From the IMG/VR virus record IMGVR_UViG_3300037479_000144, positions 1-26,005 of that record: a stretch of DNA of 26,005 nt, one strand, 5' to 3'. This document shows positions 2,565 through 25,470 of the stretch, piece after piece (positions within the stretch are counted from its first letter, which is position 1; each line of letters begins with the position of its first letter). The notes under the pieces were generated by a model that had not been told where the DNA came from, searched no databases, and saw nothing but the letters and a program-made list of their open reading frames with translations. Origin of the DNA: a virus (lineage: Duplodnaviria; Caudoviricetes). Made by a program: the position numbers and the translations under genes.

Positions 2565-2578
2565 CCAAATTCCTGGGT

Positions 2579-2920: not shown

Positions 2921-2949
2921 TACATGAATCTCTTCTCTAGTAAAGCAGC

Positions 2950-7681: not shown

Positions 7682-8058
7682 TGGGTTATATTGCATTAGC
7701 TTATGGTTCTGTTTTGTCTTTATCATCCGAAGAAATTTTAAATATTAGATGGTCAAAAAAATTTCAAATTAATAGTATACCTACTATTAATTTAACCGAG
7801 ATAACACAACCGGGAAATCTAACAGCTACAGAAATAGAAGTTCAGGCTAGAATTACATACAATGCCAGATCTGTTTTTAATAACTGGACGGGATTAATCG
7901 CAATCAAACCGCTAGAACAATTAGTATTATTTACCAGTAACTTAGGTAATTATTATTTAATAAGTTTGGATATTAATACCAATGAATTAGATGATAATGG
8001 TGATATTTTACGATTAGACATGACTTTATCATTCAAGGAAAATATAAATTTCGGCTAA
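7681..8058 (+). CDS. P2 GpU-like tail (tube initiator) protein
   Basis: 125 aa after the tape measure gene; LGNYYLISL...DDNGDILRLDMTLSFKE C-terminus matches the GpU pattern. Confidence 0.65.
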   Translation: MGYIALAYGSVLSLSSEEILNIRWSKKFQINSIPTINLTEITQPGNLTATEIEVQARITYNARSVFNNWTGLIAIKPLEQLVLFTSNLGNYYLISLDINTNELDDNGDILRLDMTLSFKENINFG

Positions 8059-8067
8059 TCAAAAATT

Positions 8068-9726: not shown

Positions 9727-9793
9727 TTAAGCAGCTTTACTACACATTTTTAGGTATTGTATTGCATTTTGTTGTCAAAAATAATACAATACC
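9727..9793. promoter_or_regulatory. Palindrome A plus an 11-bp inverted repeat upstream of the head operon
   Basis: TTAAGCAGCTTTACTA at 9727-9742; GGTATTGTATT (9753-9763) / AATACAATACC (9783-9793). Confidence 0.6.
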
Positions 9794-9816
9794 CTTTGTA
9801 CTGATAAATAAAACTT

Positions 9817-10758: not shown

Positions 10759-10793
10759 TAAAGCAGCTTAATCGATTATTAGGTATTAAGAAA

Positions 10794-11321
10794 ATGGCAA
10801 CCGGAATTAATTTAACCTACAACGTAAACACCGCGCCTATTGTACCTGAGAAATGGCAAGGGCAAATTATTTCATTAATAGGTAGACAATACCGTTTTAG
10901 TACTTTTGAACCTCTAGCAAATGGAGCATTAGAGGCAGGGGTATTTGTTACCGGATCTGTAGACTCTTTGGGAGTTTTGAATGTATCCAAACCCACAACA
11001 GCAGGAACAAAAATTTTAGGTGTAACCGCACTCAATTTTCAACGTTTTTTGACTTGGGATTCTGTATTAAATTGCTTTAATTATGCTGATAAAGATATTG
11101 TTACCCTAGTGCAAGAGGGTGACATTGTTATGTACGCGGAGGTAGCGGTTGATATTGGTGATCCTGTATTTTTACGCCATACATCTGATACGGGGCTGAC
11201 TCGTATAGGTGCATTAAGTAAAACTTCTGGCACTGGTAAAGAAGCTATCCCAGGTGCCAAATTCCTTGAGCAAACCTCAGCAGCAGGTTTGGTTAGAGTA
11301 TCGCTACCGGATTTGATCTAA
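10794..11321 (+). CDS. Capsid cement/decoration protein
   Basis: 175 aa between the DUF2213-like gene and the capsid gene; ILGVT...GDIVMYAEVAVDIGDPVF...IPGAKF...AGLVRVSL pattern. Confidence 0.75.
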   Translation: MATGINLTYNVNTAPIVPEKWQGQIISLIGRQYRFSTFEPLANGALEAGVFVTGSVDSLGVLNVSKPTTAGTKILGVTALNFQRFLTWDSVLNCFNYADKDIVTLVQEGDIVMYAEVAVDIGDPVFLRHTSDTGLTRIGALSKTSGTGKEAIPGAKFLEQTSAAGLVRVSLPDLI

Positions 11322-11373
11322 TCCTCTAAATCCACAGAATTAATTAGTTCAACAAATCAATTAGAGAAGTAAC

Positions 11374-12402
11374 ATGGTTTTTCCCGCAAATGTAAATAAG
11401 ATCGGATGGTTTTTAAAAGAGCAATTGACTAAAACTTTACCCCGCCTCTATGAGATTAATTACGCCCAATTATGGGGTTTAGATAGTAGTCTTAATTTTC
11501 ACGTGGCTTTGGGGGATTTGCCTTTAGGATTAGACTTTTTAGAAGCCTATTATAAGTCTGATGCGGGGCAGATGGCAGCTTTATATGATGGATTTAGTGA
11601 TGATGCACCCACTGTAGATGTTTCACTAGGAAAAAAAACATTCCCTTGCGCGATCTTTATCCAGGGCGCTAGGTGGAATTTAATGGATATTGAAAAAATG
11701 CGGGTAGCGTCTGAGACACGTACTATGCTGCCATCGATTAACATTATCACCGCTAAACAAGATGCTGTAGCCGATTATATGAACCGTAGGGAGCACCACA
11801 CGGTTTTGTATGGATATCCTAAAAAGGGAATTTACGGTATTTTCTCTCAAAGAGGAATAGCAACTGCTGATGCTACTTTTGTACCATATACCAAAACATC
11901 TGGTGCGTATAATATAAGCACGGCTGCATTGTACGAAGATTTAACTGACATCATCTGGCAATTCGTGAACCGTGCAAAACTATCCACCCCTGCACAGGTG
12001 CAGATGAAAGTGCCCCCCAGACTGGGTAGACGTTTGGTGGAAATTTACAAAACATCTGCTGGTGAATCTATAGGCATGACAGTACAGCAGATGTTACGTT
12101 CCACTGAATTGGGTCTAGGGATTAATTCGATCAGCATACACAATGAATTGCAAGGATCGGAATTAAATAAATATGTGTGGAATGAGGCGGGTAACGCATA
12201 TTATCCAACTTCTAACGATCGTATAGTATTCAAAGCAACTACTTACAATCCTGAAAGGCACTTTTTTGCACGTCGCCCCATTGAACCTTTCCGGCGTGGA
12301 TCGCTTGAGTATGAGCAAGTAACCATTAGCTCTACCAGTGGTATCCTCAATTTTGAAGAGGAATTTATGTGGTATTACGATTTTAGCAATGCTCTGTCAT
12401 AG
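11374..12402 (+). CDS. Major capsid protein (DUF2184-like, HK97 fold)
   Basis: 342 aa; FLKEQLT...LYEINY, DAPTVD and VLYGYPKKGIYGIF motifs; canonical position after the cement gene. Confidence 0.8.
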   Translation: MVFPANVNKIGWFLKEQLTKTLPRLYEINYAQLWGLDSSLNFHVALGDLPLGLDFLEAYYKSDAGQMAALYDGFSDDAPTVDVSLGKKTFPCAIFIQGARWNLMDIEKMRVASETRTMLPSINIITAKQDAVADYMNRREHHTVLYGYPKKGIYGIFSQRGIATADATFVPYTKTSGAYNISTAALYEDLTDIIWQFVNRAKLSTPAQVQMKVPPRLGRRLVEIYKTSAGESIGMTVQQMLRSTELGLGINSISIHNELQGSELNKYVWNEAGNAYYPTSNDRIVFKATTYNPERHFFARRPIEPFRRGSLEYEQVTISSTSGILNFEEEFMWYYDFSNALS

Positions 12403-12410
12403 ATCAAATC

Positions 12411-12710
12411 ATGCCTAGTTTATCATATAGACCGCGATCGGCTCAAGCATCACCTAAATTAGTTTATGGTACTCCAAGGGGAACCATAGAATTAAATAGC
12501 AATGAATCTTCTGTTAGTGTAACACCCGATCAGCTTGAATGGCTCAAGTGTAAGTACGAAGATTTAAGAATAGCGATAGAATCTGGCGAAATAATTGTCC
12601 TTGATAACGATCCTGTTTCTGATGCGGGGGCGAATAAAAAACCCCCAAAATCTAGTAAAGCAGCTTTACCCACTGAAGAAAACACACCCCCGCTTCCAAA
12701 AGAAAAATAA
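12411..12710 (+). CDS. Hypothetical protein downstream of the capsid gene
   Basis: 99-aa ORF tightly packed in the operon; Pro/Lys-rich tail. Confidence 0.6.
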   Translation: MPSLSYRPRSAQASPKLVYGTPRGTIELNSNESSVSVTPDQLEWLKCKYEDLRIAIESGEIIVLDNDPVSDAGANKKPPKSSKAALPTEENTPPLPKEK

Positions 12711-12712
12711 TA

Positions 12713-13087
12713 ATGAGTACTGTATATAGTGATCCTATTTTCATCAAAACCGAATTACTAACCAGTGATGGCAAAAATAGGATCACGTGTACATTGAAGG
12801 ATCAGAGTGGAAGATATTTAGCCGATTTATTGCGGAATGATTCTAAGGGTTTTTGTTTTGGTCGATTAGTTGACCCGCCCGCATCTCCTAGCTGGCTAGT
12901 TCCAGGGACGGTATTGCATGGTACTATAAATGGATTGAAAGCCGTGCTCACCGTGGAACCTAAAATCCAATCACGTATAGCAGGATTGCAAAATATCCTA
13001 GGAGATGCAATACACTTCTCTTATGTCTCGGTAACAGAATTCAACAATAGTAATAATGACACAACCAATCGCGTCAGTAGATGCTAA
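12713..13087 (+). CDS. Hypothetical protein (possible head-tail joining)
   Basis: 124-aa ORF in the operon; function inferred from position only. Confidence 0.55.
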   Translation: MSTVYSDPIFIKTELLTSDGKNRITCTLKDQSGRYLADLLRNDSKGFCFGRLVDPPASPSWLVPGTVLHGTINGLKAVLTVEPKIQSRIAGLQNILGDAIHFSYVSVTEFNNSNNDTTNRVSRC

Positions 13088-13502
13088 AAGTTTTAAGTCC
13101 TTTATGAAGGATTTGAAACAGTCTACTAGTAATTTGGAGCCTGCATTCAGAGATTTTGGTAATTACATTAAAAAGGAAACTAATACACAATTTCAAAAAG
13201 AAATTGACCCGGAAGGTAGACCTTGGGAACCTCTGAAGCCATCTACATTAGCTAGGAAGAAAACATCATTTAAACTACGCGAAACTTTTTTTATGTTTAA
13301 CGCTTTTTACTACAGAGCTACTAAAACTAATTTTGAATTTGGTATCAAAGATCCTAAATATCAGTTCCATCATTTTGGAACTAGTAAAATGCCAGCCAGG
13401 GTGGTGATAGGAATCCCAGATGATAGGCGCAAAAAGTTGAATGATTTTGTCATTGCACAAATTAGGCGGGTTAAATCACTTAGAAAACAACGTAAAAAAT
13501 GA
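13056..13502 (+). CDS. Phage virion morphogenesis protein (P2 GpS / Mu GpG family)
   Basis: QFQKEIDPEGRPWEPLKPSTLARK and YQFHHFGTSKMPARVVIGI motifs. Confidence 0.88.
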   Translation: MTQPIASVDAKSFKSFMKDLKQSTSNLEPAFRDFGNYIKKETNTQFQKEIDPEGRPWEPLKPSTLARKKTSFKLRETFFMFNAFYYRATKTNFEFGIKDPKYQFHHFGTSKMPARVVIGIPDDRRKKLNDFVIAQIRRVKSLRKQRKK

Positions 13503-13951
13503 GTTTTACCGATGTAACAGAACAAATCAAAACACTGTTGGAAGATTTTGAGGTAAAAGACTTACCAAATATACCCAATCTTAATGGAGTTTTCGAACAA
13601 TCAGAGTTAACTTTTGCTATTGTTAACGGTTCTGTTGAGGGTGAATATCTCAATTTATCTGTTAATGTTTCTGTCGCTTCACCACTCAGATATGATGACG
13701 AGAATAATTTTCTAACCAGTGATCAAAAGCGTAGTTTAGATTCTGTGGTGTTTGGTATTATTTACAAACTACACCGTAGAAAATTAAAAGGGTGCGGAAT
13801 GATGGTTTTACAATCATTCGAAAACTTCACACCTGAATCTGGTAAATGGCGATCGCTTTTGACTTTTCTTGTACCCTTTTATTTAAAATTTGAAGGTAAC
13901 GATACTGAACAGTGTTTGACCTTCCTTGCGGGAAGTCCCCAGAATGCTTAA
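13499..13951 (+). CDS. Putative tail terminator (Mu Gp37-like)
   Basis: 150 aa, ATGA overlap with the GpS-like gene, upstream of the tube gene; FENFTPESGKWR near the C-terminus. Confidence 0.5.
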   Translation: MSFTDVTEQIKTLLEDFEVKDLPNIPNLNGVFEQSELTFAIVNGSVEGEYLNLSVNVSVASPLRYDDENNFLTSDQKRSLDSVVFGIIYKLHRRKLKGCGMMVLQSFENFTPESGKWRSLLTFLVPFYLKFEGNDTEQCLTFLAGSPQNA

Positions 13952-13975
13952 TTGTTGATTGAGGCGGGTATTATA

Positions 13976-14521
13976 ATGACAGTTTCACTATTCGAGATCA
14001 CTCACTGGAATGCAAAATTAGAATACGATACAACCGGTACCGATAACGATATAACAGCCAATTTAAAAGGTGTTATTACTGACCTTTCTAGCCCAATTTT
14101 AGAGCAAGAATTTGACACCGCCAAACGTGCGGGTGAATTGGGTATAATCCCCAGACCAAAGTTTTTTAATGAAGTAGAAGTTAGCTTCACAATTAGGGGA
14201 GTATTCGATGAATTATTAAAAGCATTAGTAACAGGAACTAGTAGAACTGTAACTTTAACTGCCACCGCTTGTATCGAGGCGGATGACAACACTAATAAAG
14301 CTTATCAATTCATTTGTAAGGGGTTTGTGTCAAGTCTCCCATTCGGTGATCTATCAGAGGATGGTCTAGAAGCTGAAATATCAATGATGTGCTACTACCT
14401 AGAGGTTAAATTAGGTACTAGTTTTGCAATGATTTACGATCCTAGAAATTACCTTCTATCAATTGGTGGTGTTAATCTATTTGCTGGTATTAAGACAATC
14501 ATCGATCCGCCAGCAGTTTGA
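13976..14521 (+). CDS. Contractile tail tube protein (P2 FII-like)
   Basis: ATG 13976 follows GAGGCGGG (likely RBS) and is preferred over TTG 13952; LSSPIL...RAGELG...YYLEVKL...YDPRNYLLSIGGVNL pattern of FII tube proteins. Confidence 0.75.
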   Translation: MTVSLFEITHWNAKLEYDTTGTDNDITANLKGVITDLSSPILEQEFDTAKRAGELGIIPRPKFFNEVEVSFTIRGVFDELLKALVTGTSRTVTLTATACIEADDNTNKAYQFICKGFVSSLPFGDLSEDGLEAEISMMCYYLEVKLGTSFAMIYDPRNYLLSIGGVNLFAGIKTIIDPPAV

Positions 14522-14540
14522 TAGTTAAGCTCCTTTACTG

Positions 14541-14786
14541 ATGATCAACCCTCTTACAGAACCCCAACCCCCGCCTCTGAAAAACAATTATCCTTATTCA
14601 ATCGATGGGGTGATCAAAGATCTGACTGATCGAAAAAATTTTGGTATGAATAAATATGGAACAGCTTTACAACCTAACAACGGTAGAAATAATCTGATCG
14701 ATAGCTATCAAGAATTAATGGATTTGTTGGTGTATTTGCGTACTGAAATTAACGAAACATTTACAGAACCTACTGAGTTGTGGTAA
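14541..14786 (+). CDS. Conserved small phage protein, possibly MazG-like nucleotide pyrophosphohydrolase fold
   Basis: RKNFGMNKYGTALQPNNGRNNLIDSYQELMDLLVYL with an ExxD motif; next to dCTP deaminase. Confidence 0.5.
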   Translation: MINPLTEPQPPPLKNNYPYSIDGVIKDLTDRKNFGMNKYGTALQPNNGRNNLIDSYQELMDLLVYLRTEINETFTEPTELW

Positions 14787-14790
14787 ATTT

Positions 14791-14825
14791 TTAACACTCC
14801 CAGGTCTAAAGACACTGAGTTTCCC
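14791..14825. mobile_element. Solitary IS200/IS605-like terminal hairpin (remnant)
   Basis: TTAACACTCCCAGGTCTAAAGACACTGAGTTTCCC is a bulged hairpin around CTAAAG preceded by TTAACACTCCC, resembling IS200/IS605 ends; no tnpA/tnpB in the window. Confidence 0.4.
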
Positions 14826-14847
14826 ACTTACCGGATTTTTTTAAATC

Positions 14848-15393
14848 ATGATTTTAGTAGACTGGCAAATTAGAAACGCTTGCAAAAATGGATTAATAGA
14901 ACCTTTTGACGAAGAACTACTAAACCCTAGTAGTATTGATGTAAGGATCGGTGTATCTGCGATGGTAGATACTAAACTTGGATTCATTGATTATCCCAAT
15001 TTCAAATACCATACAAAAAATGATCCGTACTATATACCGCCAAACGATTGTATTTTAGTAGCTACTCTGGAGCGTATCAATTTGCCCATCTTCTATGCAG
15101 CAGAATTAAAGCTTAAATCAAGCCGTGCTAGAGAAGGTTTGAATCATGCGTTAGCTGGCTGGATTGATAATGGTTATAGGGGTATCATCACGCTAGAATT
15201 AAAGAATAGTTCAAACATACGTAGTGTGCCAATATATCCAGGTTTGAGAATTGGTCAGCTAATCATTATCAATACTACCACACCTGAAACGCCCTACAAT
15301 GGTAAATATCAGGATGCCAGCAGCGTCTTGCCCTCCAGCTGCGAAGATCTGGGTGTATCTACCGTCTATACTGAAGATATTATGGGAACTTAA
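14848..15393 (+). CDS. dcd: dCTP deaminase
   Basis: LNPSSIDVRIG, KSSRAREGL, AGWIDNGYRGIITLELKN, YPGLRIGQL and YNGKYQ motifs. Confidence 0.93.
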   Translation: MILVDWQIRNACKNGLIEPFDEELLNPSSIDVRIGVSAMVDTKLGFIDYPNFKYHTKNDPYYIPPNDCILVATLERINLPIFYAAELKLKSSRAREGLNHALAGWIDNGYRGIITLELKNSSNIRSVPIYPGLRIGQLIIINTTTPETPYNGKYQDASSVLPSSCEDLGVSTVYTEDIMGT

Positions 15394-15408
15394 ACTACCC
15401 ATAATATC
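15376..15408. other. 11-bp perfect inverted repeat spanning the dcd stop codon
   Basis: GATATTATGGG (15376-15386) / CCCATAATATC (15398-15408). Confidence 0.7.
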
Positions 15409-15447
15409 CCTGTAGCGATTTTTGCAGTTACAACCTAGCCACGTTAC

Positions 15448-15480
15448 AACCCCCGCCTCTGTTTGGAAGCGGGGGTTTTT
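15448..15480 (+). terminator. Rho-independent terminator between convergent dcd and DNA polymerase
   Basis: AACCCCCGC-N12-GCGGGGGTT followed by a T-tract; palindrome A follows at 15484-15498. Confidence 0.8.
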
Positions 15481-15499
15481 CTGGTAAAGCTGCTTTACT

Positions 15500-17455
15500 C
15501 TAGTATTTAGGACATTTCTCAAACTGTTCCCACATGGTTTGTACCATCGTTACGTAGTAACTCCAATCGATACGACTAGGATCACTAGTCCACATTACCT
15601 CTGTTTTTTTGAGTACTTGGCCACGTTTACCATACAAAACCTTATCACGCTCTTTGTAAATGGTTATTACATCTCCCGGTTTACCTAATCCTAATTCCAC
15701 AACCCTAGACTCATTAGCCTTGATTTTGCGGTTTATGGCTAATTTTTCCACTGGGTAAGTACCCATTAAAAGTTGAGTTAGTATTTCCTTGTAGTATGCA
15801 TCATGTTTTCCCTCCAAATAGTGCTTAATCAACTCAGGGATAAACGATCGCTCTAAGTGGCATTTATCACGCTTAACGAATTTACCTTTGGCTTTAACTT
15901 TTACCTCATTCGATTTTTTATCAAAATAGACATAAACATAATTTTTGCGCAACCCCTCTTTTGAGTCATTTTCATTGGGTGGGCAATACATGGCAAGTGC
16001 TTCTAATTCATATTCTAGGATTATTGATTTTGGCATTTTAGATTGGCAATATTGCCAAGCGGCTTTATTTTTAGCAAAAGTAGGATCATCGGATGCGAAA
16101 TAAATCCCATCAGTGTCAACGGAAGCATTTATCATGCCGCATTCTTCTAGTGCTGACATCATACGCTTTAGGATCGCCCTACCGTGTGCAGTCACTCCGG
16201 CACCCGCAATAAAATCATTGTATTCAATAAATCCAGTTGATAGGAAACCATAACCGCTATTGATGAGTACCTTTAATGCACCCTGAGTCTGTTTAGCTTG
16301 CATTCCTTCGGGTGTTCCTTTTTTCTCCTCAGCTATAGCTTTTAATCTTAATCTCTCAGTTCTGAGAAATCGTAAAACAGATAGACAATGTCTATCGGGG
16401 TCTTTATCGGAACAAATCCCATATAGCAGCATAATAGAAGGATAAAGGCTGGCTACATCGATTTTAGCAATGTTTCTGAATAAGCCAGGTTTGGAACCTG
16501 TCAACCCGCCTACAAATGTTAGTTTAGGTGATGTTTGAGGCGGGGGTGATCCCTTTCTGTTGTAGTGTTGTTTTAGAATATCATTCCATTTGGAGCCATT
16601 TCCGCTACTAGCTAATGATTGTAAATTCCAATCAGGCAAAATTAATTTTTGATAGTAGATATCAGGTAATAAAAAATCACCTATTGCTTTTGTGGCTTTT
16701 AAATCTGATTCTAGATACTCTATTAGTAACTCTTTGCCATTCACACCCTTCGTAGGCGATCTCACATCCCAATTAGCGATCGCTTGCTGCATCTGAGGAT
16801 ATGATAATTCTATGGGTTTATCGTTCTCATATCCTGGTAAACTTAATTGATTAGGTATATATTTCAAACCGTATCTAGTTAATTTGTGATTGACATAATC
16901 CCATGCTAGAGTCTGGTGAAATAGGTCTATTATTGCTGTTTCGCCCCTATTTAACCAAATATCATTATATTCTACTGGTACAGAAAATTGCTGTGCGGTT
17001 CTAAATATCTTTGTCCTTTCATGATTGATATAGAAAGGTATGTGGTTACTAGGTATACCTAGTAACCGCATCCTTTTAATCAAAAAAGGTAAGTCAAATT
17101 TAAAGCCGTTGAATGTTAGTAATATTTCTGGTTTTTTCTTTCCTAGTATCTCTAAAAATGTCAAGATGCCATTTAACTCACCATTGGATTTGCAATCTAT
17201 GATGTGACTCTTACCTCTCTCATTCATCAGACCTATCAGAACAACCTCATCTGAGTCTGGATCTAATCCGGTTGTTTCAATATCTAAATAAAGTTTAGAT
17301 ACTTGCTCTAATGGCTTTAATGTAATTGCAGGTTTCCATTCGGGTATGAATGTGTCGTCATACTCATAGATATTTATATCATCCTCGTTGATGGTTACAG
17401 TTTTGTCAGTAACTTTTGCAAGTCTTCTGAATTGTTGCAATTGTTTTGTAAGCAT
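15500..17455 (-). CDS. Family B DNA polymerase with 3'-5' exonuclease
   Basis: ExoI LYLDIETTG, ExoII FNGFKFDLPFL, ExoIII YLESD; Pol motif A DVASLYPSIM, B KVLINSGYG, C VDTDG. Confidence 0.95.
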   Translation of the reverse strand: MLTKQLQQFRRLAKVTDKTVTINEDDINIYEYDDTFIPEWKPAITLKPLEQVSKLYLDIETTGLDPDSDEVVLIGLMNERGKSHIIDCKSNGELNGILTFLEILGKKKPEILLTFNGFKFDLPFLIKRMRLLGIPSNHIPFYINHERTKIFRTAQQFSVPVEYNDIWLNRGETAIIDLFHQTLAWDYVNHKLTRYGLKYIPNQLSLPGYENDKPIELSYPQMQQAIANWDVRSPTKGVNGKELLIEYLESDLKATKAIGDFLLPDIYYQKLILPDWNLQSLASSGNGSKWNDILKQHYNRKGSPPPQTSPKLTFVGGLTGSKPGLFRNIAKIDVASLYPSIMLLYGICSDKDPDRHCLSVLRFLRTERLRLKAIAEEKKGTPEGMQAKQTQGALKVLINSGYGFLSTGFIEYNDFIAGAGVTAHGRAILKRMMSALEECGMINASVDTDGIYFASDDPTFAKNKAAWQYCQSKMPKSIILEYELEALAMYCPPNENDSKEGLRKNYVYVYFDKKSNEVKVKAKGKFVKRDKCHLERSFIPELIKHYLEGKHDAYYKEILTQLLMGTYPVEKLAINRKIKANESRVVELGLGKPGDVITIYKERDKVLYGKRGQVLKKTEVMWTSDPSRIDWSYYVTMVQTMWEQFEKCPKY

Positions 17456-17483
17456 ATTGTTATCAGAAAGATGGGTTTAGCAA

Positions 17484-17526
17484 TTAAGCTGCTTAAATCA
17501 TATATGATTGTATAGATAGTTGTCAA
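17484..17526 (-). promoter_or_regulatory. Sigma70-type promoter of DNA polymerase with palindrome A at the start site
   Basis: TTGACA (17526-17521)-N18-TATGAT (17502-17497), immediately followed by TTAAGCAGCTTAA (17496-17484). Confidence 0.7.
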
Positions 17527-17530
17527 TATG

Positions 17531-17560
17531 AAAAAACCCCAGACCTTTGATGGTCTGGGT
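17531..17560 (-). terminator. Rho-independent terminator
   Basis: Minus strand ACCCAGACC-ATCAAA-GGTCTGGGG-TTTTTT. Confidence 0.75.
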
Positions 17561-17584
17561 ATTTCATCCAAATTCCTGGGTCTG

Positions 17585-17622
17585 AAACCCCGCCTCAGCA
17601 TCTTTTTGGTAGAGGCGGGGGT
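17585..17622 (-). terminator. Hairpin made of two GAGGCGGGG copies, downstream of the helicase
   Basis: CCCCGCCTC (17588-17596) / GAGGCGGGG (17612-17620); short T-tract on the minus strand. Confidence 0.6.
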
Positions 17623-17628
17623 GCAAGT

Positions 17629-19311
17629 TCAGATATCTAGTAACTTTTCTACCAGTCGTTGATAGAATTTACTATCAAGTTTATCGGGGATGATTCCGAT
17701 TTTTTCGTTGATAACTCTATTAATATTGGTTGATTTCTGATTGTTGATGGTAGCCATCACGAAATCAACATCTTTTCCAAACACATTGTAAATTGTACAA
17801 TTTTCATTTTGCCCTATTCGATGGATACGATCGGTTGCTTGCGTGTATAGTCCAGGATTCCAAGGAAAATCATTCATCACTAGATAATTGGCTCGTGTTA
17901 ACGTGATCCCTACGCCACCGGCAGCTATCGACCCAATAAAAACTAAATTTTTACCTGATTGAAAATCATCCACCATTTGCTGACGATCTTCTAATTTAGT
18001 ATCCCCATTGAGCGATTTTACATTGAAGTGTGCAGCAATCCGATCTGCTGATTCCCTAAATTCTGTGAAGACTACGACAGGTAACCCCGCATCAACCATT
18101 GACTGAACAGTATTTATAGTTTGATAAGACTTGTAAATACTGGCTGATCTGCGCAAGTGACCTAGTGTAACCAGTGCTTCAGCTTGTAAACTAACCTCAC
18201 CTTTGCTTGCTCTTTCCAGATAGCTTTTTTTAAGCTGCTTAACCGTCTCATCGTATTCATCCTCAGCAGCTTTATTTGGCTCACAGAAAATATCAACAAT
18301 TGTTTTTTCTGGAAGATCAATACATTCCTCTTTTCGGTGCTTTATGAGCTTATCTGATATTCGTTCTGATAATTCCTCAGAATTGATTGATCCTGTAACA
18401 TCCCAAGGGGTAAAAGCGGTGGGTTTCGCATCACAATACCTTATGTCGTAATACTTTTTAGAATCCGCCACAGGATGCTTAACAGCTTTGAGTAGTGGGT
18501 ACAATTCCGAATGTCTACCGTTCAGCATTGGTGTCGCTGTCATCGCCATGACACTTACGCAATTATGGTCAGCAGCCAATTCTAGAAATTTTTTGGAACG
18601 TGCCGAGGCGGGGTTTTTATATACATGTGCCTCATCGGCAATCAGTATGTATTTTTTGTTGATTGGCGCTTTTGGTGTTTTGGCATGAGAAAAAATCTCT
18701 AGCCGTAGCTTCACTTTCTCCGCCTCTATTAGCCAATTGAGTTTCAGCGAAACCGGACAGACAACTATGATTGACAACAATTCTCCATACTCAAATCTGT
18801 AAAAGTCTCGGATTGCTTTTGCAGATATCAAAGCGGATAATGTCTTACCCAATCCCGGATCATCGCTGATAATGGCAGATAAATTGGGCTGATTCAGGAT
18901 GAAATTGATTGTTTCCCATTGGTGAAGATAGGGTGTGAAGTTCCATTCCTCGGATTCAGATTCTAGATGCTCGAAACACCAGTCTACACGGTTTTCTATT
19001 TTCTCCTTGACTAACCGCTTCTCTTCTCTAATGGTTTCCAAATACTGGTCTAGCGCATCTGTAATTACAAACCCAAAAGGAATCAGTACATCTATTAATT
19101 TTTCTACACACTGAGACCCAAACAGCCAGTATTTGTTATGCGAATTTTCGGCAACAAAGTAACCGCCGTGAACACCTTTGACAGCTTTGTAGACATCAGT
19201 ATCATAATCGAATTTGACCTTTATCTTTTTGTCAGCGGTTATGTCAATGATTCTGGTATTAGAGGCGGGTTTATCTAGGTGGGATGTTGATTGCATGGTT
19301 TTGTCTCTCAC
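17629..19311 (-). CDS. SNF2-family (SMARCAL1/HARP-like) helicase/ATPase
   Basis: DDPGLGKT, VVCPVSL, DEAH, MTATP, GITLT and QATDRIHRIGQ motifs; N-terminal IKVKFDYD...KYWLF HARP-like segment. True start may be ATG 19296. Confidence 0.92.
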   Translation of the reverse strand: MRDKTMQSTSHLDKPASNTRIIDITADKKIKVKFDYDTDVYKAVKGVHGGYFVAENSHNKYWLFGSQCVEKLIDVLIPFGFVITDALDQYLETIREEKRLVKEKIENRVDWCFEHLESESEEWNFTPYLHQWETINFILNQPNLSAIISDDPGLGKTLSALISAKAIRDFYRFEYGELLSIIVVCPVSLKLNWLIEAEKVKLRLEIFSHAKTPKAPINKKYILIADEAHVYKNPASARSKKFLELAADHNCVSVMAMTATPMLNGRHSELYPLLKAVKHPVADSKKYYDIRYCDAKPTAFTPWDVTGSINSEELSERISDKLIKHRKEECIDLPEKTIVDIFCEPNKAAEDEYDETVKQLKKSYLERASKGEVSLQAEALVTLGHLRRSASIYKSYQTINTVQSMVDAGLPVVVFTEFRESADRIAAHFNVKSLNGDTKLEDRQQMVDDFQSGKNLVFIGSIAAGGVGITLTRANYLVMNDFPWNPGLYTQATDRIHRIGQNENCTIYNVFGKDVDFVMATINNQKSTNINRVINEKIGIIPDKLDSKFYQRLVEKLLDI

Positions 19312-19322
19312 TCGATATCTAA

Positions 19323-19352
19323 ATTTTATCTTACCGTATAGATGATTGTCAA
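19323..19352 (-). promoter_or_regulatory. Sigma70-type promoter of the helicase
   Basis: TTGACA (19352-19347)-N18-TAAAAT (19328-19323); spacer begins ATCATCTATAC. Confidence 0.7.
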
Positions 19353-19371
19353 CATATCTCCCAGAAATAAG

Positions 19372-19398
19372 AAACCCGCATCTATCTGATGCGGGGGT
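19372..19398 (-). terminator. Terminator-like hairpin
   Basis: CCCGCATC (19375-19382) / GATGCGGG (19388-19395), followed by TTTCTTATTT on the minus strand. Confidence 0.65.
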
Positions 19399-19433
19399 GA
19401 TGGGAGATTGAATCGATTAAGCTGCTTTACTAA

Positions 19434-20660
19434 CTAGAAATCTTCTAATCCGGAACCTGCAAGTACAGGATACACACCATTCACATCTTCGTAGTCTTCT
19501 TTTGTGGCTTCTCTAATGGTTTCTTGAGCGGATGCTGGCAACTGCTTAGATTGCATTTTATCTTTTATCGCTCTGTAGATTTCCTGTAGATGAGGGAAAG
19601 TTGCGATTTTGGCCAAAATCCTTGGTTCTAGCGCGGTAACGGTATTTACAGGTGAATTTGTGATTTTGATCGCGCTAGGTTCGACAATGTGGATTAGCAT
19701 TATCTGATTGTCGAAATATGTATTATTCACCAACCACGTGTAACCCTCATTCTTAACCATTGCTGATGTAAATTGTATGTCTGTTGCATCGGCAAGCGTA
19801 ATGTATTCGTACTCTTTATTAGAGTTTTTCCAGTTGATAATCAACTCAGGGTGACTGCTTGCTATAATTTCCCAGCTGCTTTGTACAATGTCTGATTTTA
19901 TATTTTCGTAAGTACCAGCAGGTGTAATTTTGATAGCTCCATTCTTAACTAGGAGCAAAATCCCGCCTCTAGGAAAAGATTTAGATTGAAAGGAAGGAAC
20001 AAAAGCCTTATTACACTCAATCCATAGGCGGCTATTTCTTTGATTAACGTCTCTACAAACATCAGCAAACTTACCAGATCGCCAGAATTTAATGATATCG
20101 CTAGGCTGGTAATTAGCTTTTTTATCTACTAAAAAAGGAAAGCTAAAATTGATGGTTTTCAGATCTTCAACATATTCTAGATTAATGTAGAATTTTCCAG
20201 TACCCTTACCTTCATTATCAACCTGTTCTATTAGTTCGATCGGAGTACCATTAATAGTGTACTCAAACTCTGTAACAGTCTTTTTCCCGCGCTTCTTTTC
20301 TACTTGATCAACTTCACAGGGAATAAAAAGATCCTGTGTTTCAATATTGAATCGATCGGTGGTTGTCCCGATTAACAAACCTAGTTGACCATCACGTAAA
20401 CCTAGATAACAGGGTGAATGATAATTGAAGACATCGTTAGAATAATACGCAAAACCCATATTATTAATATCTGTGGGTTTTATTTCGATAGCAGACAAAA
20501 ACATATTAAATTGATACAGCTCTGTTTCTTCCACATTTTCAGGCAATACCAGAGTTTTGACACGATTACCAGAATTAATAGAATACTGATTATGGATGTA
20601 AGGATAATCAGAATTAGCAACAGATTGGAAAAGGTTAGACAAACGGATTGAAGAAACCAT
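19434..20660 (-). CDS. Hypothetical protein in the replication module
   Basis: 408-aa ORF with its own promoter and terminator; acidic C-terminus ending in Phe. Confidence 0.8.
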   Translation of the reverse strand: MVSSIRLSNLFQSVANSDYPYIHNQYSINSGNRVKTLVLPENVEETELYQFNMFLSAIEIKPTDINNMGFAYYSNDVFNYHSPCYLGLRDGQLGLLIGTTTDRFNIETQDLFIPCEVDQVEKKRGKKTVTEFEYTINGTPIELIEQVDNEGKGTGKFYINLEYVEDLKTINFSFPFLVDKKANYQPSDIIKFWRSGKFADVCRDVNQRNSRLWIECNKAFVPSFQSKSFPRGGILLLVKNGAIKITPAGTYENIKSDIVQSSWEIIASSHPELIINWKNSNKEYEYITLADATDIQFTSAMVKNEGYTWLVNNTYFDNQIMLIHIVEPSAIKITNSPVNTVTALEPRILAKIATFPHLQEIYRAIKDKMQSKQLPASAQETIREATKEDYEDVNGVYPVLAGSGLEDF

Positions 20661-20738
20661 TTTGAGTTACCTATTGATTTGTATTTGTGGATTTTTTAGA
20701 GATTTGGTCTAGTTGTTCTCTCAACTTCTTATGAAAAC

Positions 20739-20768
20739 AGTATAACATATCATCTATACAATTGGCCA
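20739..20768 (-). promoter_or_regulatory. Extended -10 promoter with an inverted ATCATCTATACAAT box
   Basis: TGGCCA-N18-TATACT with TG extension; box at 20749-20762 on the plus strand. Confidence 0.5.
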
Positions 20769-20797
20769 GTATTTTATCTATATAAATTTGTCCAATT

Positions 20798-20826
20798 AAA
20801 AACCCTAGATCGGATAATCTAGGGTT
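20798..20826 (-). terminator. Rho-independent terminator after the ATPase gene
   Basis: AACCCTAGAT (20801-20810) / ATCTAGGGTT (20817-20826), with a T-tract on the minus strand. Confidence 0.75.
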
Positions 20827-20848
20827 ATCGGTTTCAAGTGGTTGTTTT

Positions 20849-22537
20849 CTACTTGTCGATCAATTTACTTATCAAGTATTCTAAAGCTGCGTCGTTCAGA
20901 GTCACCCCGGTTTCTTCTTTCCATGCTTTTCGGATATGCTCCGAATTGGGATATCTGCCATATTTTTCAAAGCAAGTATCCATCCATTTTTTGATTTTGG
21001 TGTAAATTTCTTCAATATTAGAGGCGGGGGGTTGGGGTTGTTGTGGTTCCTGTGGTTGTTGTGGTTCCTGTGGTTGCTCTGGTTCCTGTGGTTGTTGTGA
21101 TTGCTGGGGTTGTTGGGGTTGCTGTGATTGCTCTGATCTTAATTTTTGTACGATAGCCTCGACATTAAACTCCGGTATGATCGCTACAAAGGGATTGCCT
21201 CTGGTAGGTCTAACCAGGCAGTATCGTAATCCCTCTTTCTGAAACAATTCACACGTTTGTTGCAGTACTGTTAAATACTCCTCAGAAATGTTTCTAACAT
21301 AGTTCGATCGATTTTTGGCATCTAATATGTACGAGGATGTTTCGCCCATAGCTATAAAGCAAGTATTATTCATAGCGGGCAAACTAAAGCCAGTATCACC
21401 GCTTAATGGTGATTGCCCCATAAAGATCCCGTGTCCCTTTGCACCAGCTAGGTTAGTGGTGATGAACAGCCATTGCGCTTGTGCCGCTACGGCGCAATCA
21501 GAATCTATATATTTACCATATCCCTTACCCTTACCGTATACGGTGTTATGTTCATCTTGTAATAAGATCAACTCTCTTACACCTTCACAACTCCCCCCGC
21601 TTTCCGAAACTAAATCTAGCTGTTCACTAGCTAGCGTTTCCATCAATTCAATCCAATTTTCTGTATTTTCATAACCATCGACTTTATATGTAAAGTCACA
21701 CAACCACCGGGTTATATCCTTTTTACCTGGTTTTTTCTTAGCGTCATGCACGGCTATTACAGCAGGTGATTGAGATCGACTAGCTATCCCATTAGCGATT
21801 ACACCCGCCAACGTGCTTTTACCAGCTTGTGTTTCGGCCACAATCATAAAATGGTGGTTAGCACGTTTTGACATCGGCATTGCTGATGATGATTCTATGA
21901 GATCGTCTATCCATTTATTGTCTATGCGTACATAGTCAGGATATTTACTGGCCATCGCTTTAATCAAAGCGCTAGCAGTTTTGTTAATGTGTAGGTCTAA
22001 GATCTCACTATTAGGTTTTGCGATCGCCCGTTCTGCAAAATTATTATTATTGGCTGATTGTGGTTCTGAGGCGGGGGTTGCTTGCTGTAATACATTAGCT
22101 ATTAATCCAATGGGTAAATTATTTCGCTGTATGTATTCAGCCATAGCTTGAGGGTGAATACCGTTAATTTTTAGAAATTCAGCAATTGATACATCTTTAG
22201 TTACATCAAGGGTAAATTGTTGCTTGATGAAACGGTTTTTAGTTTCCAGTTTTTGAGTCTCGCGATTAAGCTGCAAATAAGCTTCATACCGATTTTCAAT
22301 ATCTTCCCTCGATTTGGCAACTATAGCCGATGCGAATCCGCCTATTGATCCCGCTAGCAATTGCAATAATTTATTTCCATCTGGTTGATTGGGTAAAAAT
22401 ATTGCTGTAGCTGGTAAGGTTACTGCGAAACTAGCAATAGCAGCGTTTATCAGTCGCTTTTGGACAACATCAAGGACTAATTCGTCTATTTCCTTTCCTA
22501 GGAAGAAACTACCATTTAGCAGATTTAATTTTTTCAT
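20849..22537 (-). CDS. Membrane-anchored P-loop ATPase, FtsK/HerA-superfamily-like
   Basis: Two N-terminal hydrophobic segments, a coiled coil, HFMIVAETQAGKST (Walker A), LILLQDE (Walker B), IFMGQ motif, Q/P-rich linker and a small helical C-terminal domain. Confidence 0.75.
   Translation of the reverse strand: MKKLNLLNGSFFLGKEIDELVLDVVQKRLINAAIASFAVTLPATAIFLPNQPDGNKLLQLLAGSIGGFASAIVAKSREDIENRYEAYLQLNRETQKLETKNRFIKQQFTLDVTKDVSIAEFLKINGIHPQAMAEYIQRNNLPIGLIANVLQQATPASEPQSANNNNFAERAIAKPNSEILDLHINKTASALIKAMASKYPDYVRIDNKWIDDLIESSSAMPMSKRANHHFMIVAETQAGKSTLAGVIANGIASRSQSPAVIAVHDAKKKPGKKDITRWLCDFTYKVDGYENTENWIELMETLASEQLDLVSESGGSCEGVRELILLQDEHNTVYGKGKGYGKYIDSDCAVAAQAQWLFITTNLAGAKGHGIFMGQSPLSGDTGFSLPAMNNTCFIAMGETSSYILDAKNRSNYVRNISEEYLTVLQQTCELFQKEGLRYCLVRPTRGNPFVAIIPEFNVEAIVQKLRSEQSQQPQQPQQSQQPQEPEQPQEPQQPQEPQQPQPPASNIEEIYTKIKKWMDTCFEKYGRYPNSEHIRKAWKEETGVTLNDAALEYLISKLIDK
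21031..21130 (-). repeat. Coding 9-bp tandem repeat (QPQ/QEP linker)
   Basis: About 11 imperfect 9-nt units encoding QSQQPQQPQQSQQPQEPEQPQEPQQPQEPQQPQP. Confidence 0.9.
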
Positions 22538-22839
22538 GACACAACACCTACGGTTAGACCAACAAGTAAAGCTAAAACAATAAAAATTAATTCGATACCA
22601 TCGATAGATAAAGCAAATCTCAAGGCTTTTTTACCATATTTACCTTGGCTCTCAGCATGGGTATACGCTCTAAAAATACTAAAAGCTGTATAAGATGTGT
22701 ATCCCAGTATTATCAAAGCGCTTGCTGTACGAGTAATAGGGATGATACAACCAAGCGCGGTTAGGAATGATAAACCTGTGTATGTACCGTATCTAAGAGA
22801 TGCATAGTATAGGGCGTTAGGTTTTTTGTTGTTTTCCAT
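22534..22839 (-). CDS. Small integral membrane protein (about 3 TM segments)
   Basis: Start reassigned to ATG 22839 (MENNKKP...) because 22866-22941 is a promoter/terminator cassette; ATGA overlap with the ATPase gene. Confidence 0.7.
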   Translation of the reverse strand: MENNKKPNALYYASLRYGTYTGLSFLTALGCIIPITRTASALIILGYTSYTAFSIFRAYTHAESQGKYGKKALRFALSIDGIELIFIVLALLVGLTVGVVS

Positions 22840-22865
22840 TTTCTTTTTCCGAACTCTTTGAACTA

Positions 22866-22895
22866 ATGATAACTGATTGTATAGATGATCGTCAA
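22866..22895 (-). promoter_or_regulatory. Sigma70-type promoter of the membrane protein/ATPase pair
   Basis: TTGACG (22895-22890)-N18-TATCAT (22871-22866); spacer ATCATCTATACAATCAGT. Confidence 0.7.
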
Positions 22896-22911
22896 CATAT
22901 TCCCCAGAAAT

Positions 22912-22941
22912 AAAAAACCCCGCATCCATAGAGGCGGGGGT
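22912..22941 (-). terminator. Rho-independent terminator
   Basis: CCCCGCATC (22918-22926) / GAGGCGGGG (22931-22939), followed by TTTTTT on the minus strand. Confidence 0.75.
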
Positions 22942-22955
22942 CTGGTTAAGCTGCT

Positions 22956-23396
22956 TTAATAAGTAATGATTCTATCAGCCGTATCAACGTATTCTGCAAA
23001 CCCCGCATGAGACTGCTGGACTGTTCCCATGTCCAGCAGTTTTTCCGACATTTGCTCTAAATTTCTGGCTACTGTCTGCTGCCACTGCAACTCTAATTGT
23101 GCCGCACCTTGGGCGTGTTGCCACATAATTTGATGCGTTTGGTTCATTGCTCTGGCAGCATTTAGTTTTTGCTTACTGACTCGTTTGGCTATCACGTTGA
23201 ATCCTCTAATCTGACCCTCTGCATTAGCATATCGATTCAGTGTTTCCTCATTGCAATCAGCCGGATCCAAACGTAAAGCCTGATTAAATTCTGATTTGAG
23301 TTTGGACAATTCCTGCAAACCTTGTTTGATATCGTATCCGGATTTGACAATTTCCGATTCCCTACCTGTTGCCGTATTGTATCTAGATCCAAACAT
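22956..23396 (-). CDS. Hypothetical helical/coiled-coil protein
   Basis: 146 aa, Q/A/E-rich; operon packing. Confidence 0.7.
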   Translation of the reverse strand: MFGSRYNTATGRESEIVKSGYDIKQGLQELSKLKSEFNQALRLDPADCNEETLNRYANAEGQIRGFNVIAKRVSKQKLNAARAMNQTHQIMWQHAQGAAQLELQWQQTVARNLEQMSEKLLDMGTVQQSHAGFAEYVDTADRIITY

Positions 23397-23398
23397 AT

Positions 23399-23749
23399 CT
23401 AAAACCTAAAGTTAATTTCTTGTGTGGTTGATTTTGGTTGAAATTGTTGACTAATGGCGGATACAGCCGAATAAGTCATGGTCATTACCATAAAAAGGAA
23501 AACAGACACAAACGAAATGATAGCAAAATCAATATTAGTATTTTTGTCTATCTTTTCGCGTTCCAATTTTTGGGCATTTTGCCTGTAGTAATCAGCTTGA
23601 TTTAATAGCTGTAAGAGCATTTCTTGTGTCTGTTTGTCTGTAACATCACCCTCAAATTCTATCTGACCTATTTCTGATATTTTGAATTTGGTGATCGGTG
23701 AAATCTGGAGCGGGGGTAACTTTGTTTTCAGTTGGGGATCTTGCTGCAT
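23399..23749 (-). CDS. Hypothetical single-pass membrane protein
   Basis: 116 aa; coiled coil followed by hydrophobic FAIISFVSVFLFMVMTMTYSAV. Confidence 0.7.
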   Translation of the reverse strand: MQQDPQLKTKLPPLQISPITKFKISEIGQIEFEGDVTDKQTQEMLLQLLNQADYYRQNAQKLEREKIDKNTNIDFAIISFVSVFLFMVMTMTYSAVSAISQQFQPKSTTQEINFRF

Positions 23750-23826
23750 AAATCGCCATCATAAGTAAAAAGTAAAGAATTGGTAGTGTGATTAGTGAGA
23801 TAGAGATTAGATTGATCAACTCATTT

Positions 23827-24504
23827 TTAGTTAGCTGTTTCAGTTTTGATGTAAGCTGTGATATCCTCTTCAAATTTTCTACAGCTACTTTTAAAATGGT
23901 TTGTGGATTCCTCCAAACCCACTTGTAATTTTGTGAAAGCATCAGACGCGATAGCGTTTCTTCTTTGAAATGATGTATTAGCATGAGTCACTAATTCATT
24001 TACAGAGTTTTGAAACTGATTTGTAAACTCACTTTCCTGATAATCAATGTACTGTTTAATTACGCTTATAGCGGTATTAATTGCGTTGGTAGCATCCACA
24101 TTCATCTCTACCAACTGACCTACAATAGCCTTAACCTGAGATGTTTTCAAATCTAGGTTTAATTCTTCTACTTGTTCATATACAATGCTGCTAACTTCTT
24201 TGTATGTTAGTGGTGCTTTGTCTTCTTGTTTGGCTAGCTGATTGTTATTAGTTCCAGGTTGGTATATAACCATTTCTGCTGGTTCGTTTTCTTCTGGTAA
24301 AGCTGCTTTACTAGTGCTATCTACTGTCAATGCATTATTGCTGCTATTTACAATAGAATCAACTACTGCTTCTTTTTCATCTGATGTGATATTATTCACA
24401 TCTTTTGCTATCTCGATTAATTTCGCCTCTATAATATCTTTGGAAACATTGATACCCTTGCGGTATAGGCGATCGTAGATGTTCTTTACTATTTGCTTAT
24501 TCAT
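23827..24504 (-). CDS. Hypothetical coiled-coil protein, first gene of the leftward operon
   Basis: 225 aa; AGGA RBS upstream of ATG. Confidence 0.75.
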   Translation of the reverse strand: MNKQIVKNIYDRLYRKGINVSKDIIEAKLIEIAKDVNNITSDEKEAVVDSIVNSSNNALTVDSTSKAALPEENEPAEMVIYQPGTNNNQLAKQEDKAPLTYKEVSSIVYEQVEELNLDLKTSQVKAIVGQLVEMNVDATNAINTAISVIKQYIDYQESEFTNQFQNSVNELVTHANTSFQRRNAIASDAFTKLQVGLEESTNHFKSSCRKFEEDITAYIKTETAN

Positions 24505-24522
24505 CTGAATAATTCCTAAAAA

Positions 24523-24630
24523 CTTGCTTGACTTGCTTGACGAGTTTTTAAACTCGGTTCATAATATAAGGTTAACCATTTACACGCCGAATGTCAACCA
24601 TTTACACGCCATTTATTATCATTTATACTT
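24523..24630. promoter_or_regulatory. Divergent promoter region with direct-repeat operator candidates
   Basis: AACCATTTACACGCC at 24574-24588 and 24596-24610 (22-bp period) overlapping minus-strand TTGACA (24597-24592)-N17-TAACCT; also CTTGCTTGA x2 and hairpin CGAGTT-TTTA-AACTCG (24541-24556). Confidence 0.7.
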
Positions 24631-24690
24631 ATCAGCATCATTTTAAGTTTAAAATGGTGTATCAGTGATACAAACAATATTAGAGATATT

Positions 24691-24957
24691 ATGTCTAGAC
24701 AAAGATTAAACATTGAAATCAGCCTAAGTACATTAAGAAAACTTATACTTTGGGCATATACGAGGGATGAGAAAAAAAATTCCTGGGCCAGAACAGTTTT
24801 GATACTTAGATGCGATGAGAACGAAGAAAAGGTAAATAAATGGTTTGAGAACGAAGCGGGGCGGCTGGGTATAACAAAAGAAGAATTAGAAGATTATGTG
24901 CTGAAGAAAGAAGGATTCAACGTGGAGGAATACAAAAAAGAAATACGAGGAGAATAA
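24691..24957 (+). CDS. Small putative DNA-binding regulator (ribbon-helix-helix-like)
   Basis: 88 aa, divergent from the leftward operon; N-terminal RLNIEIS beta pattern followed by two predicted helices. Confidence 0.55.
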   Translation: MSRQRLNIEISLSTLRKLILWAYTRDEKKNSWARTVLILRCDENEEKVNKWFENEAGRLGITKEELEDYVLKKEGFNVEEYKKEIRGE

Positions 24958-24993
24958 AAAAACCCCCGCTACTCTATTGAGGCGGGGGTTTTT
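24956..24993. terminator. Bidirectional terminator between convergent genes
   Basis: A7-CCCCCGC-N13-GCGGGGG-T5; palindrome A follows at 24993-25008. Confidence 0.85.
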
Positions 24994-25008: not shown

Positions 25009-25470
25009 TCACTTTGATCGTAATCTCTGTTTGCGGCACAAACACATGAAAACGACTATAGTGCAAATTTCCTCGTTGTAATCACTCTTAGTTGAAAAAG
25101 TGTAATTTATTTTCTCAAGCCAGTAGTAAATCGTAGAGTCCGGGACATTATCATCAATTTCTTTGATGATGTTATACAATTCCTCCGCTGTCAAATAATC
25201 ACTATTGAATTTATTTACTAATTGTTTAGCTTCTAAGAGTGTGGATTGATTGTATGCAGTTCTTGGTAGATACTTTTTGAATACTTTGTACTCCTGCAAA
25301 ATAGCTTTATTCAAATCCGATGCTGACACAATGGCACCGGATTTTTTCAATTCTTCTATTATCCGGCTAACTTGTAGAACGGTTTTGGGACCTAATACAG
25401 ACTCCACCAAATCTCTAATCTCACTATTCTTTTTCTTGCTCTTGCGGTTTCTACCAAAACTAATAGGCAT
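25009..25470 (-). CDS. Hypothetical basic protein, possibly DNA-binding
   Basis: 153 aa with GGGAG RBS; LTAEELYNIIKE...VPDSTIYYWLEK resembles a winged-HTH. Confidence 0.65.
   Translation of the reverse strand: MPISFGRNRKSKKKNSEIRDLVESVLGPKTVLQVSRIIEELKKSGAIVSASDLNKAILQEYKVFKKYLPRTAYNQSTLLEAKQLVNKFNSDYLTAEELYNIIKEIDDNVPDSTIYYWLEKINYTFSTKSDYNEEICTIVVFMCLCRKQRLRSK

Follow-up and report, generated by a model that had tools for sequence, protein, structure and literature searches.

A conserved cassette with a predicted FtsK/HerA-type ATPase in phages and plasmids of filamentous cyanobacteria, and its possible role in DNA movement along the filament

The virus record IMGVR_UViG_3300037479_000144 of IMG/VR (Duplodnaviria; Caudoviricetes) was analysed from position 1 to 26,005; this whole 26,005-nt stretch is referred to here as the window. 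It represents a portion of the genome of a tailed phage, with genes for a terminase, a capsid protein, a tape measure protein, PolB and an SNF2 helicase. Because its PolB is 42-44% identical to that of A-1-like phages of Nostocales, the host is likely a filamentous cyanobacterium. The two sequencing runs that contain most of the window are both freshwater metagenomes, and one of them may be its source. The window carries a leftward gene cluster around a 562-aa ATPase, which a first-pass annotation had delimited at 20849..24957 and read as a candidate system for spreading DNA from cell to cell. Its six open reading frames were recovered where that annotation had placed them; the cassette runs on to 25470, and a 153-aa core gene had been missed. 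The region contains the following features.

20849..22537, minus strand: 562-aa ATPase; helical hairpin with a transmembrane segment and coiled coil (residues 14-124), P-loop core (171-474), Q/P linker, tail (508-560)
22534..22839, minus strand: small membrane protein, 101 aa if read from its second ATG and 131 aa if read from its first, 2-3 transmembrane segments; its TGA overlaps the ATPase ATG
22915..22942, no strand: terminator-like hairpin with the octamer GAGGCGGG inside, between the 146-aa and small membrane genes, as read from the sequence
22956..23396, minus strand: 146-aa protein, likely one long helix; core member
23399..23749, minus strand: 116-aa protein, coil and one C-proximal transmembrane segment; core member
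23827..24504, minus strand: 225-aa helical/coiled-coil protein; core member
24568..24610, no strand: tandem direct repeat AACCATTTACACGCC, 15 bp, present twice, 22 bp apart, in the divergent intergenic region; likely operators
24691..24957, plus strand: 88-aa divergent small protein, likely a ribbon-helix-helix (RHH)-type regulator; optional
24958..24993, no strand: perfect 12-bp inverted repeat, terminator-like, with GAGGCGGG, between convergent genes
25009..25470, minus strand: 153-aa predicted tandem helix-turn-helix (HTH) protein; core member, candidate reader of the dispersed octamer
1514..24986, both strands: 26 dispersed copies of GAGGCGGG, in the cluster at 21021, 22068, 22931 and 24979

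Gene set, order and carriers of the cassette

The cassette was compared across 77 long loci, i.e., those in which 5.5 kb or more of sequence precedes the ATPase gene; redundant copies were kept, and shorter loci and repeated entries of one record were left out. The order coiled-coil, single-transmembrane, long-helix, small membrane protein and ATPase gene is kept in 71 of the 77 loci, which supports the membrane and coiled-coil partners described in the first-pass annotation as a conserved set. Homologues of the single-transmembrane gene were found in 74 loci, of the 146-aa gene in 73, and of the coiled-coil and 153-aa genes in 71 each. A small gene with 2-3 transmembrane segments stands directly before the ATPase gene in 73/77 loci; since the profile comparison among the three groups of these proteins is weak (E 0.002-0.17), they are positional, not proven, homologues. 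The window protein had been described as having three transmembrane segments; it is indeed a membrane protein, its gene overlapping that of the ATPase, with two segments passing the hydropathy scan and 2-3 in relatives at the same position.

The 146-aa family comprises 165 clusters at 50% identity, and the N-terminus looks amphipathic in most relatives. The 153-aa protein gave scattered HTH matches (HTH_17, E 1e-5 in 2/22) and is predicted to be a tandem-HTH core member of the cassette. The divergent regulator and tandem operators noted previously likely correspond to the 88-aa gene and the AACCATTTACACGCC repeats. The 88-aa gene does not belong to the core: it has homologues in only 10/77 loci. 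Based on a weak link to an RHH_5 protein (E 0.019) of the sister cassette described below, the 88-aa product is likely an RHH-type regulator. Cargo genes (four-helix bundle, MazG-like) often lie between the long-helix and small membrane genes (L003 19331-19696, L070 8869-9222, L135 12599-13195). A gene with a CxxC-HH-CxxCH motif, which we take to be HNH-like, directly follows 51 of 95 ATPase genes (e.g., L014 11497-11868) and is not found in the window; CL131-type ATPases have a C-terminal PD-(D/E)XK-like domain in its place. In the window, the ATPase gene is followed by a gene for a 408-aa protein (19434-20660, PHROG 36548) that occurs only in A-1-like phages and is absent from plasmids and from provirus G402.

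We refer to the window-type cassette as type 1. Its named carriers are almost exclusively phages, plasmids and genomes of filamentous cyanobacteria. An exact-pattern scan of GTDB, which for this reason misses distant forms, returned 65 loci, 63 of them titled Nostocales, one from an uncultured cyanobacterium and one on a 2.3-kb contig in an Acetobacteraceae bin. Eight phage records carry the cassette ATPase (CL131, N1, A1, A-1(L), Elbi, YongM, YongM2 and Dfl-JY23), all with Nostocales hosts, and the full cassette was checked in 5 of the 8; homologous GenBank entries include A-1(L) gp45-gp51, YongM ORF73, N1, and CL131 gp108-gp113/gp121. The phage cassettes adjoin helicase and PolB genes. Among 72,556 plasmids, the ATPase and the 146-aa gene match the identical set of 15, of which 7 are typed as non-mobilizable and 8 as conjugative. 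Unicellular genera account for none of the 47 hosts of cassette plasmids (15 type-1, 32 sister-type) and for at least 59 of the 248 hosts of control plasmids matching CyRepA1, a control that includes partial relaxase matches; its plasmids from the filamentous genera Planktothrix and Pseudanabaena gave no cassette match. In 400 sampled Cyanobacteriota genomes (3 candidates scored per genome), one extra match was found, to the tail only, and a scan of IMG/VR with the N1-type ATPase gave no match. The restriction of named carriers to filamentous hosts, for which the first-pass annotation had suggested a survey, is supported. It had also named a non-FtsK/HerA fold, and homologues common in unicellular hosts without the membrane partners, as results that would speak against it; neither was found.

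The sister cassette has a different FtsK/HerA-type ATPase. Its link to the window type rests on layout, on a weak core similarity (E about 0.001), and on provirus G402, in which homologues of the coiled-coil and 153-aa genes are joined to such a different ATPase. Thirty-two plasmids, from the genera Nostoc, Leptolyngbya, Aulosira, Tolypothrix, Oscillatoria, Microchaete and Calothrix, carry the sister ATPase. Across the six plasmid loci that were read, its gene comes after a multi-transmembrane gene or after long-helix and multi-transmembrane genes, often under a divergent RHH gene. Directly after 4 of 7 sister-type ATPase genes, we found arrays of 4-7 short words (L140 10054-10250, L141 10576-10750, L144 15066-15230, L145 14146-14396) resembling clt of Streptomyces plasmids, with words that differ between plasmids; two sister loci with a tail-less ATPase have 1 and 3 word copies. 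The sister-type tails appear winged-helix-like, judged by eye only. L145 (1-14818) is a 14.8-kb non-mobilizable Calothrix plasmid consisting mostly of rep, an RHH regulator, the sister cassette and a recombinase-like gene, without a GCGATCGC site; we take its layout to resemble that of small Streptomyces spreading plasmids (for pSVH1, PMC4447253). In L140 (3913-4845) and L141 (4734-5849), the sister cassette is preceded by a ParM/StbA gene that runs in the same direction.

Predicted fold and motifs of the ATPase

The AlphaFold2 model of the 562-aa ATPase, built from 66 sequences (predicted local distance difference test, pLDDT, 86.6), begins with a long helical hairpin that includes a hydrophobic segment; the P-loop core comes next, and a disordered Q/P linker (residues 478-503, low pLDDT) joins it to a three-helix tail. 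The N-terminal membrane anchor claimed earlier is retained in the prediction as one segment passing the hydropathy scan, not several. The top structural match of the core is TcpA (PDB 6o1x; Z 16.1, root-mean-square deviation 3.4, 231 residues, 12% identity), followed by EssC (Z 15.3), FtsK (14.8) and HerA (13.8), with RecA lower at 11.2. Among the 66 ATPases, Pfam DUF87 matched 43 and FtsK_SpoIIIE matched 5, both below cut-off, and PDDEXK_9, a PD-(D/E)XK family, matched 13. The protein is therefore predicted to be a membrane-anchored ATPase of the FtsK/HerA fold, in agreement with the FtsK-like assignment of the first-pass annotation. Searches of PDB sequences with profiles of the ATPase, the 153-aa protein and the 146-aa protein returned nothing significant.

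The Walker A motif (AETQAGKST, K240), the Walker B motif (LLQDE, D328/E329) and the polar sensor Q375 after strand 4 were located, and K240, D328/E329 and Q375 are invariant across the 66 sequences; the window Walker A starts with A, not G. At the position before strand 4 where the arginine finger usually lies, the window type has no arginine, N1-type ATPases have EGRK and sister-type ATPases have GREY/F; the conserved K367, R225 or R438 could serve as a substitute. The window and N1-type ATPases share the N-terminus and tail and have different cores, which suggests that a motor was exchanged inside a fixed frame.

The C-terminal domain of about 55 residues had been described as helical, in an annotation that also cited the C-terminal winged HTH of TraB. 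Modelled alone, the tail (508-560) has three helices and no strands, the protein ending at helix 3; the helical description stands, and the predicted lack of a beta-wing sets the tail apart from the TraB-like C-terminal winged helix. Its best matches in two structure searches, both weak, are HTHs of the CENP-B/Tc5 type (template-modelling score 0.71; Z 6.4). Neither FtsK gamma nor the TraB winged HTH is among the 50 listed structural matches of the tail, which by itself excludes nothing. DNA binding by the tail is plausible. A fusion of the ATPase tail with a beta-helix-like repeat protein occurs in genome G153 (L105 1489-2943).

The dispersed octamer

The octamer GAGGCGGG occurs 26 times in the window, 17 times on the plus and 9 times on the minus strand, and 0.13 copies were expected; it equals the SpoIIIE recognition sequence (SRS) at 6 of 8 positions, and GAGAAGGG itself has no copy in the window. 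Twenty of the 26 sites lie inside genes, 9 of them sense and 11 antisense. At G/C third-codon positions, 0 of 28 differ from the relative L099 within the sites and 288 of 1279 elsewhere (p 0.002); on this sequence comparison, GAGGCGGG is under selection. The 6/8 likeness reported by the first-pass annotation holds up. As for co-occurrence of an enriched 8-mer with the cassette, which it had suggested testing, only 3 of the 75 cassette loci measuring 9 kb or more (the window, L070 and N1) contain a dispersed 8-mer with strong enrichment, HIP1 being excluded, and none of 14 further cassette loci does.

A-1-like phages each have their own word on both strands: AAGCGGGGG in L070, TGATTCCGGGG in N1, and TGACTCCGGGG in A-1(L), Elbi and Dfl-JY23. 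The two strands carry 27 and 30 copies of the cognate word in N1 and 27 each in A-1(L), and no switch point was seen in the window, L070, N1, A-1(L), Elbi, Dfl-JY23 or G402. In G402, ACCAGGG occurs approximately 80 times; its ATPase stops where the core ends, and no separate tail turned up in the record, which is 81% complete. Presence of a word follows the lineage of PolB phages. All A-1-like PolB phages examined have a G-rich word of their own that is unpolarised, recurs roughly every kb, lies mostly in genes and is conserved at synonymous sites. No clt-like clustering of GAGGCGGG was seen in the window, a 26-kb part of the genome.

The first-pass annotation had proposed GAGGCGGG as a loading signal for the ATPase tail. 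A common insertion in the tails of the window, L070 and N1 types favours this idea. We nevertheless rejected it: the word is unpolarised and unclustered, has no counterpart in 72 of the 75 loci, all of the tail-bearing family, and has one in the tail-less G402, so GAGGCGGG is probably not the signal of the motor. A role as a strict stoperator was likewise rejected because the distribution within genes and between sense and antisense is not transcription-oriented; GAGGCGGG may still be a repressor site in general. It is more likely that the word is bound by another phage protein acting as an adaptor or a repressor, for which the 153-aa tandem-HTH protein is the best candidate. In a tree, the 153-aa proteins from 6 of the 7 elements with a word group together with support (98/97), L070 being on a long branch. 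These word-bearing kin share PolB and helicase genes too, and, since kin share labels in any case, the 153-aa protein is a candidate reader only. Chenard et al. (2016; PMC4916379), in the part of the article available to us, describe asymmetric motifs, 43 in A-1 and 21 in N-1, that they regard as potential stoperators; these are likely identical with the A-1-like words found here.

Possible function in DNA movement along the filament

As the best explanation of the cassette, we propose that it spreads element DNA along filaments in a manner analogous to TraB/Spd of Streptomyces, a tentative reading to which we assign somewhat less than an even chance. It is favoured because a membrane-anchored motor of predicted FtsK fold is combined with coupled small membrane genes, no type IV secretion system (T4SS) lies beside it, its carriers are both plasmids and phages, and the hosts are filamentous. 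At the cross-wall, the ATPase would come together with the coiled-coil and small membrane proteins of the cassette; there, we infer, it would act as an oligomeric pump, driving double-stranded phage or plasmid DNA into the next cell. A phage might thereby gain extra host cells per adsorption without virion release, and a plasmid might fill the filament after entering one cell. DNA would probably be selected by means other than the tail reading GAGGCGGG, possibly with the 153-aa protein as adaptor. Hints of a DNA substrate come from the repeat arrays of the sister type, the PD-(D/E)XK matches and the HNH-like motif gene. Based on the portion seen, a preprint (10.64898/2026.02.14.705889; 2026) describes potential cell-to-cell spread of an A-1(L) relative. 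In a more specific form, A-1-like and CL131-like phages and Nostoc plasmids would share a septal DNA pump through which naked genomes pass from cell to cell without virions, the tandem-HTH protein coating the lineage word and handing the genome to the motor. Such a two-part choice of substrate would be unlike that of TraB or FtsK, and we regard this form as possible although rather unlikely.

The likeness to Streptomyces TraB/Spd (pSVH1, pIJ101; PMC4447253, as far as its accessible text goes) includes one membrane-anchored FtsK-like ATPase and 3-7 small coupled genes; the same text presents the Spd genes themselves as diverse. The filamentous hosts are a further point in common, and an optional divergent regulator (TraR/KorA there) may be another; for the divergent repressor (Kor/TraR), possible counterparts are the 88-aa gene with its tandem repeats in the window and an RHH-type gene in the sister cassette. 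The clt likeness applies to the sister cassette, in 4 of 7 loci read. The Streptomyces system differs in that the cassette has a wingless three-helix tail, a core tandem-HTH gene, tailed-phage carriers and a diderm host, and in that the window type has no clt-like cluster. Because the winged-HTH and clt comparisons fail, we do not file the cassette under TraB/Spd, and the likeness to Spd and Kor proteins is one of layout, with sequence homology not established. FtsK and SpoIIIE share with the ATPase the motor fold and a linker with a small C-terminal domain; the core of the cassette protein measures about 300 residues, its tail has no wing, and the dispersed word is unpolarised, unlike SRS and the FtsK orienting polar sequences (KOPS).

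Several observations weigh against this reading. At the presumed arginine-finger position, A/G stands in place of R in the window-type core (NLAGAK/FTAGLK), EccC/EssC, a protein-secretion ATPase, ties with TcpA as core match, and the CENP-B match of the tail ties with unrelated helices. The window ATPase and 105 of 107 type-1 ATPases are followed by no clt-like array (a GC-rich 6-mer reaches 3 copies at most), none of 4 CxxC-HH-CxxCH genes has a Pfam match, and the cassette encodes neither a second ATPase nor a wall hydrolase, nor any channel that could be recognised. The confinement of type 1 to Nostocales may simply reflect inheritance; the cassette plasmid counts are not independent; the host restriction covers named carriers, with 0 of 20 distant 146-aa relatives having a host name; and the host of the window itself is deduced from relatives. 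Septal junctions are known for small molecules, and the route of DNA across two membranes and the septal wall is unexplained. The above preprint, in the same portion, stresses how strongly outcomes differ between neighbouring cells.

As the main rival, we consider segregation at division: the motor and its partners would tether or pump DNA across the septum while it closes, and both daughters (or hormogonia and akinetes) would inherit the element without transfer through a finished cross-wall. This is the established native task of FtsK; the predicted membrane anchor and DNA-binding proteins agree with it, and an unpolarised dispersed word would suit tethering sites. We nevertheless judge it improbable: pNPUN02 already has its own ParA/ParB, and segregation leaves unexplained both the absence from plasmids of unicellular hosts and the retention in lytically growing A-1-like phages.

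An EccC-like machine for secretion or membrane remodelling, exporting the 146-aa protein, altering septal junctions or excluding competing elements, would fit EssC/EccC lying within 1-2 Z of the best core match, the NCBIfam EccCb match of the ATPase (E 0.003), the apparent lack of a canonical arginine finger in the window-type core and the weak Synaptobrevin match of the 116-aa single-transmembrane protein (E 0.003). The fold likeness to type VII EccC/EssC (Z 14-15) is offset by one ATPase domain instead of three, by the absence of a WXG100 or EccD-like partner, with no WXG motif in the alignment of the 146-aa family, and by the HTH-like tail, HTH partner, nuclease matches and repeat arrays, all of which indicate DNA. 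This non-DNA role is accordingly quite improbable.

Slightly further down, we place donor-to-recipient conjugation between filaments, with the ATPase either acting alone, like TraB, or serving, in the manner of TcpA, as coupling protein of a T4SS whose genes lie elsewhere; we hold it to be very doubtful. The coupling protein TcpA of Clostridium perfringens pCW3 is the best structural match and likewise has an N-terminal membrane anchor, 8/15 type-1 plasmids are typed conjugative, and some of the sister ATPases carry the annotation T4SS DNA-transfer protein. TcpA, however, serves a T4SS with VirB4, a hydrolase and a relaxase, and the cassette has none of these: in the loci read, neither VirB4 nor a relaxase is annotated beside it, except for a relaxase about 13 kb away in L144. 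The cyanobacterial mating-pair formation class MPF-C is defined by linkage to VirB4 according to the part of PMC4027160 consulted; homologues of VirB4 and of the core complex are not annotated around the cassette in these loci, as judged by neighbourhood and not by MPF-C profiles. Moreover, a diderm envelope needs an outer-membrane core, which is missing here, and phages have virions for passage between filaments.

Least probable among the roles retained, and poorly so, is a membrane anchor organising replication or recombination of element DNA within one cell, with the dispersed word as attachment sites. Phage cassettes do adjoin helicase and PolB genes, and the word tracks the PolB lineage; plasmids and CL131-like phages, however, carry the same cassette alongside other replication genes and without such a word, and host restriction is left unexplained. 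A packaging motor, which the first-pass annotation had already considered unlikely, is rejected, since the window has a terminase gene (2950-4362) and the cassette also occurs on plasmids.

Parts of the system have been noted before. In GenBank, the homologous ATPase of A-1(L) and YongM is labelled 'DNA translocase FTSK', and Table 1 of PMC11356776, the part seen, labels it FtsK; the partner genes in A-1(L), YongM, N1 and CL131 are annotated as hypothetical or misnamed. Besides this label, the A-1/N-1 motifs are already known. A literature search, covering sources in part, found no description of the cassette, of its host restriction, or of a machine by which DNA or phages cross septa in multicellular cyanobacteria. 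If DNA movement along the filament holds true, it would change the view of how bloom-forming filaments are infected and of how a plasmid fills a filament after conjugation, and the Streptomyces spreading strategy would have arisen in a second filamentous lineage and be used there by viruses. Named genes for knock-out are available in tractable systems: gp45-gp51 of A-1(L), with Anabaena PCC 7120 as host, and those of the sister cassette of plasmids pCC7120gamma and pNPUN04.

At the end of the window (25932-26000), imperfect tandem GACGAG(T) repeats are present, possibly an origin or a terminal/inverted repeat as described for A-1-like phages.

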